A DNA stretch of 64,000 bases from an uncultured Chloroflexia bacterium. Its GTDB lineage: Bacteria > Chloroflexota > Limnocylindria > Limnocylindrales > CSP1-4. The notes below the pieces were generated by a model. It was given only the letters and a program-made list of their open reading frames with translations, did no database searches and was not told where the DNA came from. How positions within the stretch are numbered: the stretch's first letter is position 1; each line of letters opens with the position of its first letter. The stretch covers positions 608,001 to 672,000 of the forward strand of contig CAWFXA010000003.1 in NCBI GenBank assembly GCA_963819655.1. The letters run 5' to 3'. Of the stretch, positions 47,799-51,902 are shown in pieces. The position numbers and the translations under genes are program-made.

Positions 47799-48915
47799 CC
47801 ACGCGATCCTGGAACGTCGTCTCCGTGCGGTGCGACGCGCCGTCCTCGATGGAGGCGTACGCCTTCACGATCACGTCGAGGACATGGCGGGCGTGCTCGG
47901 CCGTCAGGACCGGGTCGGCCCTCCCGCGCAGGCAGTCGACGAAATGGCGGACGCCGGTCTCGACGACTTCGTGATCGTCCGTCGGGACCTCGACGTCGTC
48001 TCGCCAGCCCTCCAGCGCCGACGGCGAGTCGTCGTCGACGTAGATGCTGACAGGCGCGTGGCGGTCGTGCGACTGGCCGCCGAAGCTGATCGTCGCCTTG
48101 GTGAGGTGCACTTCGAGCCACGGAGCCCGGGTGCTCGCCGTCCCGAAGCTCGCAAGGAGCTGCCCGAGCGCGCCGTTCGCGAACTCCAGGTTGATCAGAA
48201 CGTGGTCCGGGGTCGTGACCGCGATCTCCTCGCCGGTCAACGGCCCGCCGCGGACGATCCGCGTCGGCGCGCCGACGCCGCCCATCGCCTGCACACGGGC
48301 GACGGGACCGAGCAGAGCCGTCATCGCGTGGAGTCGATAGACCCCGTGGTCGATGACCGGGCCGACACCAGGCCCGTAGAAGGGCCGCGGGTCGCCGGTG
48401 TACTCGCGCCAGGCCGCCGGCCCCGGATCGGCGTGGTGAGCGACGACCAGGGTCGCGGGCCCGTATCGCCGCGAGTCGACGAGGTCCCTCAGCCACTGGA
48501 CACGCCGCGTCGCCGCGACGCCCGGGGCGCACAGGAACGTGAGGCCGCGGTCGGTGGCCGTCGCGATGAGCCGGTCTGCCTCCGCGACGGTACTGGCGAT
48601 CGGCTTCTCCGAGTAGAGGTTCAGCCCCGCGTCCAGGATCGCCTGGTTGACCGTCGCATGCCGGGGTGCCGGCGCGAGGTCGATCACCGCATCAAGCCCG
48701 CCCGCCCCGAGCATCGCATCGAGATCATCGAACGCGGCGGCGCCCGGCGACCATCCGGCGATCGCCTGCGCCCTGCCACGTGCCGCGTCGAGCCGGACGT
48801 CCATGAGCGCGGCGACCCGGACGTCGCCGGCCATGTCGGCGAGCGCCGGCAGGTAATGGCGTGCGGCGACATCGCCGCAGCCGACGATGCCGATCCTCAA
48901 CCGGTCTGTAGCCAC
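47749..48915 (-). CDS. Gfo/Idh/MocA family oxidoreductase
   Basis: IGIVGCG, SEKPIA, DHGVY. Confidence 0.9.
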   Translation of the reverse strand: MATDRLRIGIVGCGDVAARHYLPALADMAGDVRVAALMDVRLDAARGRAQAIAGWSPGAAAFDDLDAMLGAGGLDAVIDLAPAPRHATVNQAILDAGLNLYSEKPIASTVAEADRLIATATDRGLTFLCAPGVAATRRVQWLRDLVDSRRYGPATLVVAHHADPGPAAWREYTGDPRPFYGPGVGPVIDHGVYRLHAMTALLGPVARVQAMGGVGAPTRIVRGGPLTGEEIAVTTPDHVLINLEFANGALGQLLASFGTASTRAPWLEVHLTKATISFGGQSHDRHAPVSIYVDDDSPSALEGWRDDVEVPTDDHEVVETGVRHFVDCLRGRADPVLTAEHARHVLDVIVKAYASIEDGASHRTETTFQDRVVTTARVATPRQLRACP

Positions 48916-48954
48916 CCGCCGATAGTAGTCAGCGACGGGTGGCGCCGCTGAGCG

Positions 48955-50286
48955 CTAGGCCGCGTACACGTCCCGCGGCGTCACCACGTCGGGTACGCCC
49001 ACTTCGATCGGGTTGTTGGCGGGATCCTGGCTCCACTCGAACCAGCCGCCGTCGTACACCGCGATGCGTGGCCAGTCCTGGAGAAAGGCGTAGAACCACG
49101 TCTCGCTGGCCCGCCAGCCGGTGCCGCAATAGAACGCGACCCACTTGTCCGGCACGATCCCCGCTTCGGCCCAGTTGGCCGTGATCTCGGGATAGGCGCG
49201 CATCGTGTTGTCGACGTTCCGGTAGTGCTGCATGTGGTAGGCGTCCGTGCCGCAGTTGCCCCACACGTCACCCTTGATCCGGCCGGCCGGGCCGATGTAG
49301 TTGTAGCCACTGACGTTGCCGATGTGCTCGCGCCATGTGCGGACGCTGACCAGAGCCGCGCCGTCGGTGTCGGCGATGATCTCCTTGGCCTCGTCGATGT
49401 CGACGATGACCTCCGGACGGACCGGGATGACCGCGCCGAAGTCGGTGACCGGCGACGGCTCGCGCAGGACCGTCTCGACCGGGTTGCCGGCGCGGACCCA
49501 CCAGTCGTACCCGCCGTCGAGCAGTCGGACGTCCTCGACGCCTGCGTAGGTCAGGATCATCAGCGCCCGGGTGGCAGCGATCTGGCCCGCCCGACGACCG
49601 GGCCATTTCTCGTTGGCCTGCCCCTCCGTGTCACGCCCGTACACGACGACGGTCGTGTCCTTGGTGATGCCGAGCCCGCGGATCGCCGCATCGAGGACGT
49701 CGGGAGACCGCCGGTTCCAGTCGGCGGGGTCTTCGAGCACATTCGTGTCCAGGTACAGGGCACCGGGGATGTGCGCCTCGGCGTACTCCTCGGGAACCCC
49801 GAAGTTGACGTGGAACAACAGGAAGTCGCCCCTCGGCGCGGCCTCCGGGCGCTCGCCGGCGAGGACCTGGCGCAGCCAGTCGATGTGCACGAGCCGGTCG
49901 TACTTCGGGAGCCGCTCGACCGGCAACTCCGGGTCGGCCGCCCAGGCCGCGAACCCGTCGGCGTAGATCCGAGCCGCCGGGATGCCGAGCGACTCGAGCC
50001 TGGTGACAAGGGCCGAGGCGTCGTCGGGCCCGTTGCCGTAGACCACCACATCGCGGTCGGCGGTCACACCCTTGCCGGCAAGCAGGCGGGCGATCTCAGG
50101 CTCGTCGACCGTTCGGAGCCAGTCGATCGGGAACCCGACTGCTCCCGGGATGTGGCCGCCGCGAAGTTCGCCGTTCAGGCGCCACCCGTTATAGGCGGTC
50201 AGCGATCGGACGTCGACGACCGTCACGGACGGATCGGCGAGTCGATCGCGGAGTTCGGCGGTGCTGATCGTGGCGGTTGTCGTCAT
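48955..50286 (-). CDS. Three-domain rhodanese sulfurtransferase (YnjE-like)
   Basis: GGHIPGA, AHIPGA, LLDGG, active loop FYCGTGWRAS, YDGGWFEWS. Confidence 0.9.
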   Translation of the reverse strand: MTTTATISTAELRDRLADPSVTVVDVRSLTAYNGWRLNGELRGGHIPGAVGFPIDWLRTVDEPEIARLLAGKGVTADRDVVVYGNGPDDASALVTRLESLGIPAARIYADGFAAWAADPELPVERLPKYDRLVHIDWLRQVLAGERPEAAPRGDFLLFHVNFGVPEEYAEAHIPGALYLDTNVLEDPADWNRRSPDVLDAAIRGLGITKDTTVVVYGRDTEGQANEKWPGRRAGQIAATRALMILTYAGVEDVRLLDGGYDWWVRAGNPVETVLREPSPVTDFGAVIPVRPEVIVDIDEAKEIIADTDGAALVSVRTWREHIGNVSGYNYIGPAGRIKGDVWGNCGTDAYHMQHYRNVDNTMRAYPEITANWAEAGIVPDKWVAFYCGTGWRASETWFYAFLQDWPRIAVYDGGWFEWSQDPANNPIEVGVPDVVTPRDVYAA

Positions 50287-50315
50287 CGGGATCGTCCCCT
50301 CGTGGTGGGTCGGGA

Positions 50316-50344
50316 TAACAAGAAACCCCTGCGCCTGCAGGGGT
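50316..50344 (-). terminator. Intrinsic terminator in the sulfurtransferase leader (attenuator)
   Basis: Minus strand ACCCCTGC-AGGC-GCAGGGGT followed by TTCTTGTTA, 30 nt upstream of the start codon. Confidence 0.8.
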
Positions 50345-50386
50345 CCGGGGTGAGGGCCGGCGTGCGGGTCTACGTCGAACGCACGC

Positions 50387-50452
50387 CTAGCGACACCACC
50401 TGCCCTGCTCGGCAGCGGCATGACACATGCAGTGGTGGTGCGTGCGGGTCAT
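50387..50452 (-). CDS. Cys/His-rich leader peptide MTRTHHHCMCHAAAEQGRWCR (21 aa)
   Basis: ATG ACC CGC ACG CAC CAC CAC TGC ATG TGT CAT ... TGG TGT CGC TAG, placed between the promoter and the terminator. Confidence 0.7.
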   Translation of the reverse strand: MTRTHHHCMCHAAAEQGRWCR

Positions 50453-50460
50453 CGCGGCGC

Positions 50461-50489
50461 ATTGTCCACTAATCGACTAGGGATTGCAA
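50461..50489 (-). promoter_or_regulatory. Sigma70-type promoter for the leaderless leader peptide, with a palindromic spacer
   Basis: TTGCAA-17 nt-GACAAT, 8 nt before the ATG; spacer contains the near-palindrome CTAGTCGATTAG. Confidence 0.55.
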
Positions 50490-50534: not shown

Positions 50535-51731
50535 TCACGCCTGCGTGGTCTCGGGCGCATCCCGATTGACCCCGCGTCGCAGGCGAGCGGGCGACAGCGG
50601 CAGACACGACACGACGAGGACCACGGCGATGGCGACGAGCATCCAGAGGCTTGCGCCGAAATCCCCCGTCAGGTCTCGAGCGGCGCCGAGGATGACCGGG
50701 CCGCTCGACGACACGATGTAGCCGCCGAGCAGCATCAGGGCCGCGACCGATCCCACGCGCGCGGGATCGTCGGCGACGTCCAGCGGCAGCGTCAGCACCA
50801 GCGGGAATACCGCGCCGAGCGACAGACCGAGGACCACCATCCACGCGAACGCGAGCTCCGGCGCCACGATGATCCCGACCAGCCCACCGACCGCGATCGC
50901 CGACGACACGAGGAGCTGCGGCCGGCGCGGTCCGAGCCGATCCGCGATGAGCGGGACACCGATGGTGGTGATCAGGCCGATGCCGTTGAACACGCCGATC
51001 AACGCACCGGCATCGGTCGTGTTCCAGCCGCGCTCAACGAATGCATTCGGCAACCAGGACACGATCCCGTAGAAGAGCACCGACTGCAGGCCGAAGACTG
51101 CGACCAGCAGCCACGCCGTCGCGTCCCCCCACGGCAGCCGCCGAGCGGTGGTCGCCCTGTCGGCGGGGCGCCGATCGAGTCCGCCCAGGACGACCCAGGC
51201 GACCACGGAGAGGATCGACAGAGTCGAGATGACCAGGAGGGCCTGGCGCCAGTCGTCCCCGGCGGCCAGCGGCACGGCGAACCCGGCGGCCAGCGTCGAG
51301 CCGGCGACGATGCCGCCGGCATAGGCGCCGGTGCCGAGGGCCGGACGGTCGGGCATGCGTCGCGACACGATCATCGAGGGGATCGCCCCGGCCGTCCCGA
51401 TCCCGATGCCGATGCCGAGCGTCGCGAGGAGCACGAGCGGCACCGTCGGAGCGAACGCCCGGGCGAGCCCGAAGGCGACGATCGCCACGAGGCAGGCCGC
51501 GAAGGCCACGCCGGATCCGAAGCGCGCGGCCAGACGCGGACCCACGGGTGCGAACAGACCCATGCACAGGACCGGGATGGTGGTGAGCAGACCGGCGATG
51601 CCCGCCGACAGCCCGAGATCCTCGCGGATGAGTGGCAGCAGCGGCCCGATCGCGAGGATCTGCGGTCGCATCGCCAGCGACGCCACGAACAGGCCGGCGA
51701 TGACGCCCAGCGGGATCGCGGCGCGACTCAC
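50535..51731 (-). CDS. MFS transporter, CynX/NimT-like
   Basis: AMRPQILAIGPLL, LLTTIPVLCMG, FGLQSVLFY, VSWLP; about 12 TM. Confidence 0.85.
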   Translation of the reverse strand: MSRAAIPLGVIAGLFVASLAMRPQILAIGPLLPLIREDLGLSAGIAGLLTTIPVLCMGLFAPVGPRLAARFGSGVAFAACLVAIVAFGLARAFAPTVPLVLLATLGIGIGIGTAGAIPSMIVSRRMPDRPALGTGAYAGGIVAGSTLAAGFAVPLAAGDDWRQALLVISTLSILSVVAWVVLGGLDRRPADRATTARRLPWGDATAWLLVAVFGLQSVLFYGIVSWLPNAFVERGWNTTDAGALIGVFNGIGLITTIGVPLIADRLGPRRPQLLVSSAIAVGGLVGIIVAPELAFAWMVVLGLSLGAVFPLVLTLPLDVADDPARVGSVAALMLLGGYIVSSSGPVILGAARDLTGDFGASLWMLVAIAVVLVVSCLPLSPARLRRGVNRDAPETTQA

Positions 51732-51902
51732 GGCTTCGTGCCGTCCCCTCGGCCCGGCGGGCACGCACCGATATGGGGCCGGGAATCGGGCATCCGCGAA
51801 CTCTAGCCGACCGGCGGCGCCTGCCCGGCCCGATCACGCGTACCTAGGAACGGCGCCGCTACTACCTTGGCACCGCCAGTTCGTGCGTGCATACTCCTCG
51901 GT

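Follow-up and report, generated by a model that had tools for sequence, protein, structure and literature searches.

A candidate cysteine-sensing leader-peptide attenuator upstream of a rhodanese gene in Limnocylindria-type Chloroflexota

In the 64,000-nt stretch of Chloroflexota DNA analyzed here (the window), a leader upstream of a rhodanese gene probably acts as a ribosome-mediated transcription attenuator. It would sense the supply of charged tRNA-Cys, such that the rhodanese is switched on when cysteine is short. An original prediction had proposed a Cys-sensing leader-peptide transcription attenuator at this site, and comparison with relatives bears this out at the level of sequence: the ATG, frame, C-x-C motif, stop codon, hairpin and terminator are conserved in ∼90 leaders before the same gene. 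The anatomy of the leader, its conservation, codon bias and geometry, and two competing folds can all be read from the DNA. Promoter, ORF, hairpin, terminator and the GCAGGG element lie on the minus strand where they had been placed, base for base (Table 1).

Table 1. Elements of the candidate attenuator and its downstream gene, in coordinates of the 64,000-nt window
Feature	Position	Strand	Basis or remark
-35 box TTGCAA	50484..50489	minus	read directly
-10 box GACAAT	50461..50466	minus	read directly; 17-nt spacer from -35
Leader ORF MTRTHHHCMCHAAAEQGRWCR, 21 codons + TAG	50387..50452	minus	ORF listing
Sensor codons Cys8-Met9-Cys10 = TGC ATG TGT	50423..50431	minus	
Antiterminator 5' strand GCAGGGCAGGTGGTGT, codons Q-G-R-W-C	50393..50408	minus	
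GCAGGG, complement of terminator 5' arm CCCUGC	50408-50403	minus	
Hairpin P: GGCGTGCG 50387-50380 / CGCACGCC 50366-50359	50359..50387	minus	
C-rich linker GGCCCTCACCCCGG, second half of antiterminator 3' strand	50345..50358	minus	
Terminator ACCCCTGC 50344-50337, loop AGGC, GCAGGGGT 50332-50325	50325..50344	minus	consensus scan
U tract TTCTTGTT	50317..50324	minus	
Shine-Dalgarno GAGGGGAC of rhodanese gene	50293..50300	minus	read directly
Three-domain rhodanese sulfurtransferase, 443 aa	48955..50286	minus	Pfam Rhodanese, 3 stretches

About 90 distinct leaders were found in Limnocylindria-type Chloroflexota, one copy per genome, upstream of orthologous rhodanese genes. The conserved unit covers ∼135 nt and comprises a promoter, an ATG, a C-x-C ORF of 21–24 codons, a hairpin that begins on the stop codon, and a GC stem followed by a U tract. 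Among same-genus orthologue loci, 24 of 29 have the leader ORF. A covariance model trained on 24 orthologous leaders detected a single strong copy in the window's genome (E 4e-35), well beyond chance expectation. Of 151 genomes of the family, 34 have one copy each, spread over 15 of 49 genera; this tally counts the window's own genome as well as G140, an unpublished genome of which the sequence was not used. The window's genome also yielded two weak matches (E 0.03 and 0.08); both fall within coding sequence, rpoA-like in one case, and were discarded. In a class sample of 151 genomes, with the window's own genome left out, the leader was present in 10 of 44 genomes of the window's family and in 2 of 49, 1 of 50, 0 of 6 and 0 of 1 genomes of other families. 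A pattern scan of ∼186,000 species genomes retrieved 80 loci; 68 carried the leader, and in 67 of these a rhodanese was visible downstream. All known carriers are soil Chloroflexota represented solely by metagenome-assembled genomes.

The association with the rhodanese is tight. An orthologous rhodanese follows 31 of 32 model matches, the remaining match being at a contig end, and GAGGG-like Shine–Dalgarno (SD) motifs like that of the window also occur in orthologous leaders. The upstream neighbor is variable. We considered the terminator as the 3' end of an upstream MFS gene and rejected this, since an MFS gene lies within 1.5 kb in just 13 of 60 loci, on either side, and the leader always precedes the rhodanese. 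A genome-wide scan for promoter-proximal Cys-rich short ORFs gave eight matches including the window's, none of the others convincing; five of the other seven were inspected, and these overlap or abut coding frames or precede infC. Judged from these searches, the Cys leader is one locus in the genome and not a regulon.

The promoter of the window scored 8/12, under the threshold of the promoter scan, and promoter-like -35/spacer/-10 arrangements were found in 87 of 90 related leaders. These have a TTGnnn -35 element, a spacer of 17–19 nt (17–18 nt in 86 of the 87) and -10 boxes of the form nAnnnT, such as GACAAT, CACAAT, CAGAAT and CACACT. In the window, 8 nt separate the -10 box from the leader ATG at 50452; in 82 of the 87 related leaders, the ATG lies 8–10 nt past the -10 box. 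An SD-like 4-mer precedes the leader ATG in just 9 of 90 cases. Together, this short distance and the rarity of SD elements suggest a leaderless or nearly leaderless transcript. One contig from an RNA library, X1, includes 17 nt or more of sequence before the leader ATG, which does not fit a strictly leaderless start but is also explicable by DNA carry-over or by read-through from upstream. Contigs from four RNA libraries (four studies) cover the leader, three of them spanning the terminator and two ending at 50277. As these contigs do not show strand, ends or level, they are no evidence for or against termination.

Of 93 leaders, 90 contain a homologous ORF, and 81 of these 90 ORFs are 21–24 codons long. 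Thus the Cys-rich upstream ORF that was to be sought before related genes is conserved. Leader ORFs typically have 3–5 Cys among ∼23 codons, and at least three in 83 of 90. Cys accounts for 0.94% of codons across the window's genome, so that the ORFs are enriched ∼15-fold or more over this background. Codon choice is skewed as well. TGT, the Cys codon read by wobble, makes up 244 of 314 (78%) of the Cys codons in leader ORFs, versus 24% genome-wide; the three Cys codons of the window's ORF are TGC, TGT and TGT. The genome has a single tRNA-Cys(GCA). The C-x-C motif occurs in 86 of 90 ORFs, and two of the four ORFs that lack it have only one Cys in the cluster. Adjacent Cys codons (CC, CCC) are seen in some leaders and a long run in none, and the third conserved Cys codon sits where a stall would favor termination. 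Both the C-x-C arrangement in place of a long Cys run and the location of this third codon weaken the attenuator reading.

Spacing between the ORF and the RNA elements is well conserved. In 68 of 89 leaders, GCAGGG lies 17 nt past the final Cys codon of the cluster; the antiterminator 5' strand ends 19 nt before the stop codon in 84 of 92, and hairpin P opens on the final base of that codon. Hairpin P covaries, as a check on relatives' upstream regions had been meant to establish: across 95 rows, 5 of its 7 pairs show compensatory double changes (e.g. UA to CG in 24 rows). Rather than a competing arm, the GGCGTGCG hairpin is a constant element that the antiterminator encloses. The terminator stem pairs in 99.2% of alignment cells and is almost invariant, with a median hairpin free energy of -14.6 kcal/mol. 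At least five T are found in the 9 nt past the stem in 91 of 93 leaders (the genome is 69% G+C).

The proposed antiterminator pairing, GCAGGG with CCCUGC, is possible in 98.4% of alignment cells. No compensatory changes were found in this helix in the alignment, where helix and terminator stem are almost invariant, and the antiterminator rests therefore on conserved complementarity and one-sided G.U changes. In minimum-energy folds, the C-rich linker pairs with GGUGG. Shuffling of the linker gave weak support for this second antiterminator helix (mean z -0.68), and a compensated linker change is seen in leader L150. A pairing of CACCACTGC (His/Cys codons) with GCAGGTGGTG, originally put forward as one of two exclusive pairings (the '1:2' pairing), proved peculiar to the His-rich clade of the window and is not conserved. 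More generally, no conserved anti-antiterminator (1:2) hairpin was found among the leaders; RNAalifold proposes no more than a weak CUGCC/GGUGG hairpin. When the full leader of the window, a single sequence, is folded to minimum energy, its Cys codons pair locally and not with GAGGGGAC.

From these features we infer a transcription start, ORF translation, stalling, termination and a cysteine response that would fit together as follows. Transcription would begin at or within a few bases of the leader ATG, so that a ribosome could load on the emerging 5' end. With Cys-tRNA in ample supply, the ribosome would pass the C-x-C codons and reach the stop codon overlapping the first base of P, covering on its way the G-rich stretch GCAGGGCAGGUGGUGU. 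With this stretch covered, the terminator 5' arm CCCCUGC would be left with its own 3' arm as sole partner; the terminator hairpin and U tract would form, and RNA polymerase would halt 30–40 nt short of the rhodanese gene. Under a shortage of Cys-tRNA, the ribosome would stall with a Cys codon in the A site and its front edge a few bases short of GCAGGG. The freed G-rich stretch could then pair with the C-rich linker and terminator 5' arm, enclosing hairpin P. This antiterminator would form before the terminator 3' arm exists, and polymerase would read into the sulfurtransferase gene. Because the translating ribosome would itself play the anti-antiterminator part, untranslated RNA would default to read-through. 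Masking of GCAGGGCAGGUGGUG would be expected to raise termination at the U tract.

Folding with and without a ribosome mask, a check that had been proposed at the outset, agrees with this scheme in part. With a stalled ribosome and the terminator 3' arm not yet made, 88 of 89 leaders have the antiterminator as their minimum-energy fold; placing the ribosome at the stop codon instead yields the terminator, again in 88 of 89. Free untranslated RNA adopts the antiterminator fold in 75 of 89. The full-length RNA with a stalled ribosome does not conform: in 64 of 89 leaders its lowest-energy structure is the terminator, so read-through would need kinetic trapping. The two folds are nearly isoenergetic, with a median free-energy difference of +2.4 kcal/mol. 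When the G-rich stretch is shuffled, the fold difference becomes 8.1 kcal/mol, and 9.5% of shuffles perform as well as the real sequence.

The regulated gene starts at the ATG at 50286-50284. A 488-aa ORF from the ATG at 50421 was rejected as the gene start, as orthologue alignments begin at residues 2–6 of the 443-aa form. The gene had been described as a YnjE-like sulfurtransferase. It is indeed a rhodanese, but YnjE (E 1.7e-90) is not its nearest relative; the closest PDB structures are 6h98 and 6ktv (E 1e-123; for 6h98, 1.7e-123 over residues 7–432), which we take to be EanB. In the open literature, we found no paper tying these PDB codes to EanB. The active-site loop C-G-T-G-W-R is present, as FYCGTGWR aligned to 6h98. 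YnjE has the same kind of active-site loop. EanB-type ergothioneine synthase is supplied with trimethylhistidine by a histidine methyltransferase (EanA/EgtD), and a search for this family (PF10017) found nothing in the genome of the window (91% complete). A role of the enzyme in ergothioneine synthesis is not supported, given the absence of PF10017 from the genome.

Other explanations for the leader were weighed against attenuation by cysteine. The short ORF could be a gene for a Cys-rich micropeptide, such as a metal-binding, redox or sulfur-carrier partner of the rhodanese, with a leaky terminator setting the peptide:enzyme ratio and cysteine regulation absent or secondary. This would account for an ORF that always adjoins the rhodanese and widely keeps its Cys positions and a C-terminal QGRWC motif, and the available text of Canestrari et al. 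(bioRxiv 10.1101/834739) raises the point that conserved non-Cys residues could serve an independent small protein. Yet in the C-terminal part it is the bases that are fixed. Across the Q-G-R-W region they are near-invariant while the amino acids vary (E to R/G/M, R to K/G, W to R), and rare codons are used, namely TGT and AGG, the latter only 3.9% of the genome's Arg codons. Precisely the bases that can pair with the terminator 5' arm are the ones conserved. Moreover, the N-terminal half is hypervariable, being free to change in sequence and length, and the fixed spacing of Cys codons, GCAGGG and stop would be meaningless for a peptide. We regard the micropeptide explanation as unlikely.

Even less weight is given to an attenuator driven by general translation speed (stress, antibiotics, other amino acids, or His in the window's clade), comparable to whiB7-type uORFs. 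It would be in keeping with the antiterminator fold predicted for untranslated or slowly translated RNA in those 75 of 89 leaders, with the presence of HH(H) directly before C-x-C in 27 of 90 ORFs, and with the mere two or three Cys codons at the sensor position. But the x residue of C-x-C and the residue past the motif both vary, and Cys alone is conserved at the sensor position across genera. The degree of Cys enrichment, the preference for TGT against genomic bias, and the identity of the regulated gene as a sulfur-transfer enzyme also speak against a general sensor. Very improbable, in our estimate, is a riboswitch-like or protein-bound RNA that senses a ligand directly and whose reading frame is incidental. 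Although the nucleotides of the GCAGGGCAGGUGGUGU stretch and of the terminator stem show extreme conservation, and a constant hairpin P is present, the ATG keeps a fixed distance from the -10 box, and 90 of 93 leaders retain the frame, the Cys codons and a P-abutting stop even though the variable part has indels. Apart from P, there is no conserved multi-helix junction or pocket. Searches against Rfam gave nothing above noise in the region, and in five variant loci only a tRNA matched.

If the leader is a cysteine attenuator, it would matter in several ways. Textbook leader-peptide attenuation has no known classical terminator-based cysteine case, a gap that this family would fill, and the only tested Cys-sensing short ORFs, those of mycobacteria, work on translation. 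The family would add Chloroflexota to the range of ribosome-mediated attenuation and of leaderless sensory ORFs, mark a class of unannotated ORFs missed by gene callers, and link a three-domain rhodanese in abundant soil bacteria to cysteine status. A compact element of ∼135 nt without a 1:2 hairpin would also suit study of how a ribosome alone chooses between near-isoenergetic folds. In literature outside subscription journals, we found neither a terminator-type Cys attenuator nor a Chloroflexota leader peptide. We lean slightly toward regarding this as the first of both, a family that would be leaderless and class-wide (Limnocylindria-type), with the ribosome as sole anti-antiterminator, a stop-codon hairpin coupling translation termination to polymerase fate, and control over an EanB-like C–S bond-forming enzyme. 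In the boldest form of this proposal, the HHHCMCH peptide encoded in the window's clade would sense three amino acids at once, namely His, Met and Cys, which would then be the three precursors of a thiohistidine product.

The trp, his, phe, thr and leu attenuators of Proteobacteria use a codon-enriched short ORF and mutually exclusive antiterminator and terminator folds, with ribosome position deciding between them. The Chloroflexota leader, as proposed, resembles them in all three respects. To our knowledge, no classical leader-peptide attenuator of Proteobacteria senses cysteine. The Proteobacteria systems also have a 1:2 anti-antiterminator/pause hairpin, untranslated RNA that terminates, and ORFs with an SD; here, no 1:2 hairpin is conserved, the predicted default is read-through, and the ATG lies just past the -10 box. 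The 1:2 hairpin is typical of trp and his, and is not universal. The ilvB1 attenuator of Mtb is described without one in the available portion of Eckartt et al. (2026, PMC13236596). In that system, as would be the case here, the antiterminator strand is covered once the ribosome has reached the stop codon, and a Rho-independent terminator forms; the strand is exposed by a stall at the regulatory codons. The ilvB1 leader differs in that it senses branched-chain amino acids (LVVI codons) and is 166 nt long (PMC13236596, same portion); it also belongs to another phylum and has no sequence in common with the leader described here.

The nearest parallels in amino acid specificity come from Actinobacteria. 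Leaderless poly-Cys ORFs of mycobacteria (Ms5788A / Rv0815A and five further loci) precede sulfur/cysteine genes, and a poly-Cys ORF controls an operon that includes the rhodanese cysA2, according to the available text of Canestrari et al. (2020, bioRxiv 10.1101/834739); this agrees with the earlier statement that such ORFs control sulfur genes. The same text states that uORF attenuation for cysteine had not previously been described. Common to both systems are an unannotated, Cys-rich short ORF at the 5' end, ahead of sulfur or cysteine genes, and a ribosome stalled at Cys codons that is taken to remodel the RNA downstream. As described there, however, the mycobacterial ORFs act on translation, with a Cys tract that pairs with the SD of the next gene and no terminator, whereas the Chloroflexota leader has a terminator and a candidate antiterminator. 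They also have a run of consecutive Cys codons at the ORF 3' end, in contrast to C-x-C in mid-ORF, and they form a regulon in another phylum, in contrast to a single locus per genome in Chloroflexota. Earlier candidates for Cys leaders in Actinobacteria, which precede cys or cbs operons, likewise have Cys codons near the stop and were predicted by comparative genomics (Seliverstov et al. 2005, PMC1262725, in the part available). For these, the same part of the paper reports no conserved terminator hairpins and proposes Rho dependence, whereas in the leader described here, the terminator is the best conserved part.

The element, a leader with a Cys-rich short ORF and a terminator, lies on the minus strand upstream of a gene for a three-domain rhodanese. 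On re-reading the sequence, we located every part of it that the original prediction had described. A consensus scan of the window detected the terminator and missed the promoter, which scored 8/12 against a threshold of 9. An Rfam search at the leader returned no match.

Parts of the leader upstream of the rhodanese gene (window positions)
Feature	Position	Strand	Remark
-35 box TTGCAA	50489-50484	minus	read directly
Spacer, 17 nt, between TTGCAA and GACAAT		minus	read directly
-10 box GACAAT	50466-50461	minus	then 8 nt to ATG
Leader ORF, 21 codons, MTRTHHHCMCHAAAEQGRWCR	ATG at 50452; stop TAG 50389-50387	minus	also in ORF listing
Hairpin P, GGCGTGCG/CGCACGCC	50387-50359	minus	first G doubles as the final stop-codon base
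Terminator stem, ACCCCTGC-AGGC-GCAGGGGT	50344-50325	minus	found by consensus scan
U tract, TTCTTGTT		minus	directly after terminator stem; read directly
GAGGGGAC, between U tract and rhodanese start		minus	read directly
Rhodanese start ATG	50286	minus	backed by orthologue alignments

The rhodanese frame is open upstream to an ATG at 50421, which adds 45 codons and gives a 488-aa ORF (48955-50421). This ATG was ruled out, and 50286 taken as the real start, because orthologue alignments begin at residues 2-6 of the shorter, 443-aa version. The spurious frame crosses the terminator and hairpin, and a gene caller could choose it and hide the leader. An inverted repeat, GCCACCCG...CGGGTGGC (48915-48950), directly follows the end of the rhodanese gene; it lacks a U tract and precedes a GFO/IDH/MocA oxidoreductase gene.

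A protein search with the rhodanese in 61 related genomes yielded 28 further same-genus loci (L002-L029). When the upstream regions were aligned, the Cys ORF proved to be conserved, with a homologous short ORF at the same place in 24 of 29 same-genus loci, the window's own counted. These 24 leaders (alignment A1) share the ATG, a C-x-C motif, the near-invariant block GCCGAGCAGGGCAGGTGGTGT, a stop codon that adjoins the hairpin, and the terminator plus U tract. With a covariance model derived from A1, the window's genome yielded a single strong match (E 4e-35); two weak matches there both lie inside coding sequence and were rejected. Across the family, 34 of 151 genomes, in 15 of 49 genera, carry one copy each, a tally that includes the window's own genome and an unpublished one (G140), which contributed nothing beyond this count. 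In a class sample (151 genomes, own genome excluded), the model matched 10/44 genomes of the window's family and 2/49, 1/50, 0/6 and 0/1 genomes of other families. Because related genomes are not independent, such counts overstate statistical weight.

A pattern scan for the G-rich block joined to the terminator, using one genome per species (∼186,000 species), gave 82 stretches. Eighty were fetched, and 68 of these contain the leader, with a rhodanese within 450 nt in 67. The other 12 have neither leader nor rhodanese and are chance matches in other phyla. Most true matches bear the titles uncultured Chloroflexia, Candidatus Limnocylindrales or Chloroflexota, which bears out the phylum originally guessed, Chloroflexota. 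Six loci (L087, L088, L089, L095, L115 and L134) have a typical leader and rhodanese on contigs whose titles name Verrucomicrobiia, Methylomirabilota, Patescibacteria, Deltaproteobacteria or Saccharimonadales; mislabelling or mis-binning of MAG contigs is a likelier cause than inter-phylum transfer.

The hairpin and U tract might merely mark the end of the gene upstream, here a CynX/NimT-type MFS gene (50535-51764). We ruled this out, since that gene occurs within 1.5 kb, on either side, in only 13 of 60 related loci. An orthologous rhodanese (58-86% identity) follows 31 of 32 model matches from the family and class searches, the remaining match being at a contig end. Because the rhodanese is constant downstream and the upstream neighbour varies, the leader belongs to the rhodanese. 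In some of the 13 loci the MFS gene is upstream of the rhodanese and in others downstream; their adjacency may reflect a functional link, such as substrate import. No second Cys-rich leader was found in the window's genome.

Leader statistics were taken from 93 distinct leaders (the larger alignment A2, minus one antisense and one truncated row). An ATG-initiated ORF ending at the hairpin-adjacent stop codon is present in 90, with a length of 21-24 codons in 81 of these. Its N-terminal half varies in sequence and length, and Cys is the sole conserved residue of the sensor region. At least three Cys are encoded in 83/90 ORFs and C-x-C in 86/90, the middle residue (M, L, S, P, R and others) and the next one (H, P, R, C and others) being variable. 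TGT makes up 244 of the 314 Cys codons in leader ORFs versus 24% genome-wide, and Cys accounts for 0.94% of codons in the genome's long open frames, the source of our genome codon figures and a proxy that may take in some non-coding frames. The one tRNA-Cys of the genome carries the anticodon GCA, and TGT is therefore a wobble-read codon.

A -35/-10 pair is present in 87/90 leaders, and in 82 of these 87 the ATG follows the -10 box by 8-10 nt. An SD-like 4-mer precedes the leader ATG in only 9/90. This arrangement suggests that the message is leaderless or almost so. Contigs from RNA libraries of four studies cover the leader, three bridge the terminator, and one extends at least 17 nt upstream of the leader ATG, although such contigs show neither strand, ends nor level. 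In five leaders (L012, L088, L094, L105 and L115), the ORF has lost its usual stop codon and extends 3-6 codons into hairpin P; in three cases it then ends ..ACC, giving two extra Cys codons.

Hairpin P shows double changes in 5 of 7 pairs (e.g. UA to CG in 24 rows), and in the aligned sequences this covariation is real. The terminator stem is near-invariant (99.2% of alignment cells paired), with a median hairpin free energy of -14.6 kcal/mol and at least five T in 9 nt of the U tract in 91/93 leaders, in a genome of 69% G+C. GCAGGG is also near-invariant. Its proposed pairing with CCCUGC of the terminator 5' arm is conserved, being possible in 98.4% of cells, with departures that are one-sided G.U changes only and none compensatory. 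Such freezing is expected because the segment must pair with two partners, one of them also coding; near-invariance thus leaves the antiterminator without compensatory proof. At the Q-G-R-W codons, amino acids change and bases are kept, and this region uses AGG, which makes up 3.9% of the genome's Arg codons; as judged from the alignment, the constraint here is on RNA, not peptide. One leader's antisense strand also matches the covariance model (last A2 row), so the 3' third of the ORF approximates the reverse complement of the C-rich linker (between P and the terminator) plus the terminator 5' arm, around the palindromic P.

On evidence that is wholly comparative and computational, the element is most likely a Cys-tRNA-sensing, ribosome-mediated switch, as proposed. 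With ample Cys-tRNA, the ribosome would pass C-x-C, cover the G-rich stretch (GCAGGG...GGUGG) and reach the P-fused stop codon, and the terminator would form. With scarce Cys-tRNA, it would stall at C-x-C; the G-rich stretch would then pair with the linker and terminator 5' arm ahead of synthesis of the 3' arm, letting polymerase enter the rhodanese gene. Speculatively, P could be a pause hairpin released by the terminating ribosome. Counted from the first base of the last clustered Cys codon, GCAGGG starts after 17 nt in 68/89 leaders (other spacings, 14, 11, 8 and 23 nt), and in 84/92 its end lies 19 nt upstream of the stop codon. Since a ribosome with the Cys codon in its A site protects ∼12 nt downstream, GCAGGG falls just past the ribosome edge.

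Minimum-energy folds were computed for 89 leaders in four modelled states, with and without ribosome-masked codons. With the ribosome stalled at the Cys codon and the RNA ending before the terminator 3' arm, 88/89 gave the antiterminator; with the ribosome at the stop codon, 88/89 gave the terminator. Full-length RNA with a stalled ribosome formed the terminator in 64/89 and the antiterminator in 25/89, and ribosome-free RNA ending before the 3' arm formed the antiterminator in 75/89. In the antiterminator fold, GCAGGG pairs with CCCUGC and GGUGG with the linker, enclosing P. The median fold energy difference was +2.4 kcal/mol for stalled and -0.4 kcal/mol for free RNA. Shuffling the G-rich stretch raised the median difference to 8.1 kcal/mol, with 9.5% of shuffles performing as well as the real sequence; shuffling the linker alone gave weak support (mean z -0.68). 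A distant member, L150, has a compensated linker helix, GGUGCA with UGCACC. RNAalifold found only a weak CUGCC/GGUGG hairpin in the leader alignment. A further suggested pairing, of the His/Cys codons with GCAGGTGGTG, is present in the window and did not extend beyond its His-rich clade. HH or HHH stands right before C-x-C in the window (50432-50440) and in 27/90 leader ORFs of the whole related set, and the window's clade also has Met between the Cys codons (HHHCMCH). A stall at the His codons would free the antiterminator strand too, of interest if the enzyme really makes thiohistidine.

The regulated product has 443 aa and three rhodanese domains. It had been called a YnjE-like sulfurtransferase; the sulfurtransferase assignment stands, but YnjE (E 1.7e-90) comes next after the closest solved relatives, 'Sulfurtransferase' entries 6h98 and 6ktv (E ∼1e-123, residues 7-432), with which the active-site loop FYCGTGWR aligns. 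We take these entries to be EanB, which in Chlorobium limicola acts as an anaerobic ergothioneine synthase. Ergothioneine synthesis was not assigned to the enzyme, because no EgtD/EanA-type methyltransferase was found in the window's genome (91% complete). Despite this, that genome (G000) encodes an FGE-sulfatase/EgtB-type domain protein (PF03781, E 1.5e-81) at C1:575827-576735. NCBIfam has no fitting model for the rhodanese, and no other sulfur gene lies near it. Many EanB-like enzymes have unknown functions, according to a review (PMC9516567).

Another leader type, unrelated to the first, stands upstream of the more divergent rhodanese orthologues (63-66% identity; L026, L028, L029 and L151-L156). 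It has its own TTG...TAGGGT promoter with a start codon a few bases on, an ORF with only 1-2 Cys (..RDMC[M/T]..), a hairpin GGCGGCCCCGCC...GGGGTCC and a separate covarying terminator. Its motif occurs in 6/401 family genomes, and Rfam gave no match. At another locus (L015, genome G009), the leader ∼120 nt upstream of the rhodanese retains promoter and terminator but lacks the Cys ORF and hairpin P; the terminator is instead crossed by a GTG ORF that has Cys codons in both the 5' arm and the U tract. This leader may have arisen by deletion or may follow another design.

In the literature outside subscription journals, we found neither a terminator-type Cys attenuator nor a Chloroflexota leader peptide. 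Naville and Gautheret (PMC2965389) knew of leader peptides in Proteobacteria and Actinobacteria only, to which their own study added Firmicutes. Seliverstov et al. (PMC1262725) predict actinobacterial Cys leader peptides 'without obvious terminators'. Canestrari et al. (bioRxiv 10.1101/834739) showed that mycobacterial leaderless poly-Cys ORFs, which involve no terminator, attenuate translation through occlusion of the Shine-Dalgarno site; an operon containing the rhodanese gene cysA2 is under the control of one of them, and cysteine upstream-ORF attenuation is said there not to have been described before. The M. tuberculosis ilvB1 leader, as described (PMC13236596), follows the same logic as the element here, a ribosome at the stop codon masking the antiterminator. 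The trp case is the opposite, whereas here the modelled folds predict that untranslated RNA reads through.
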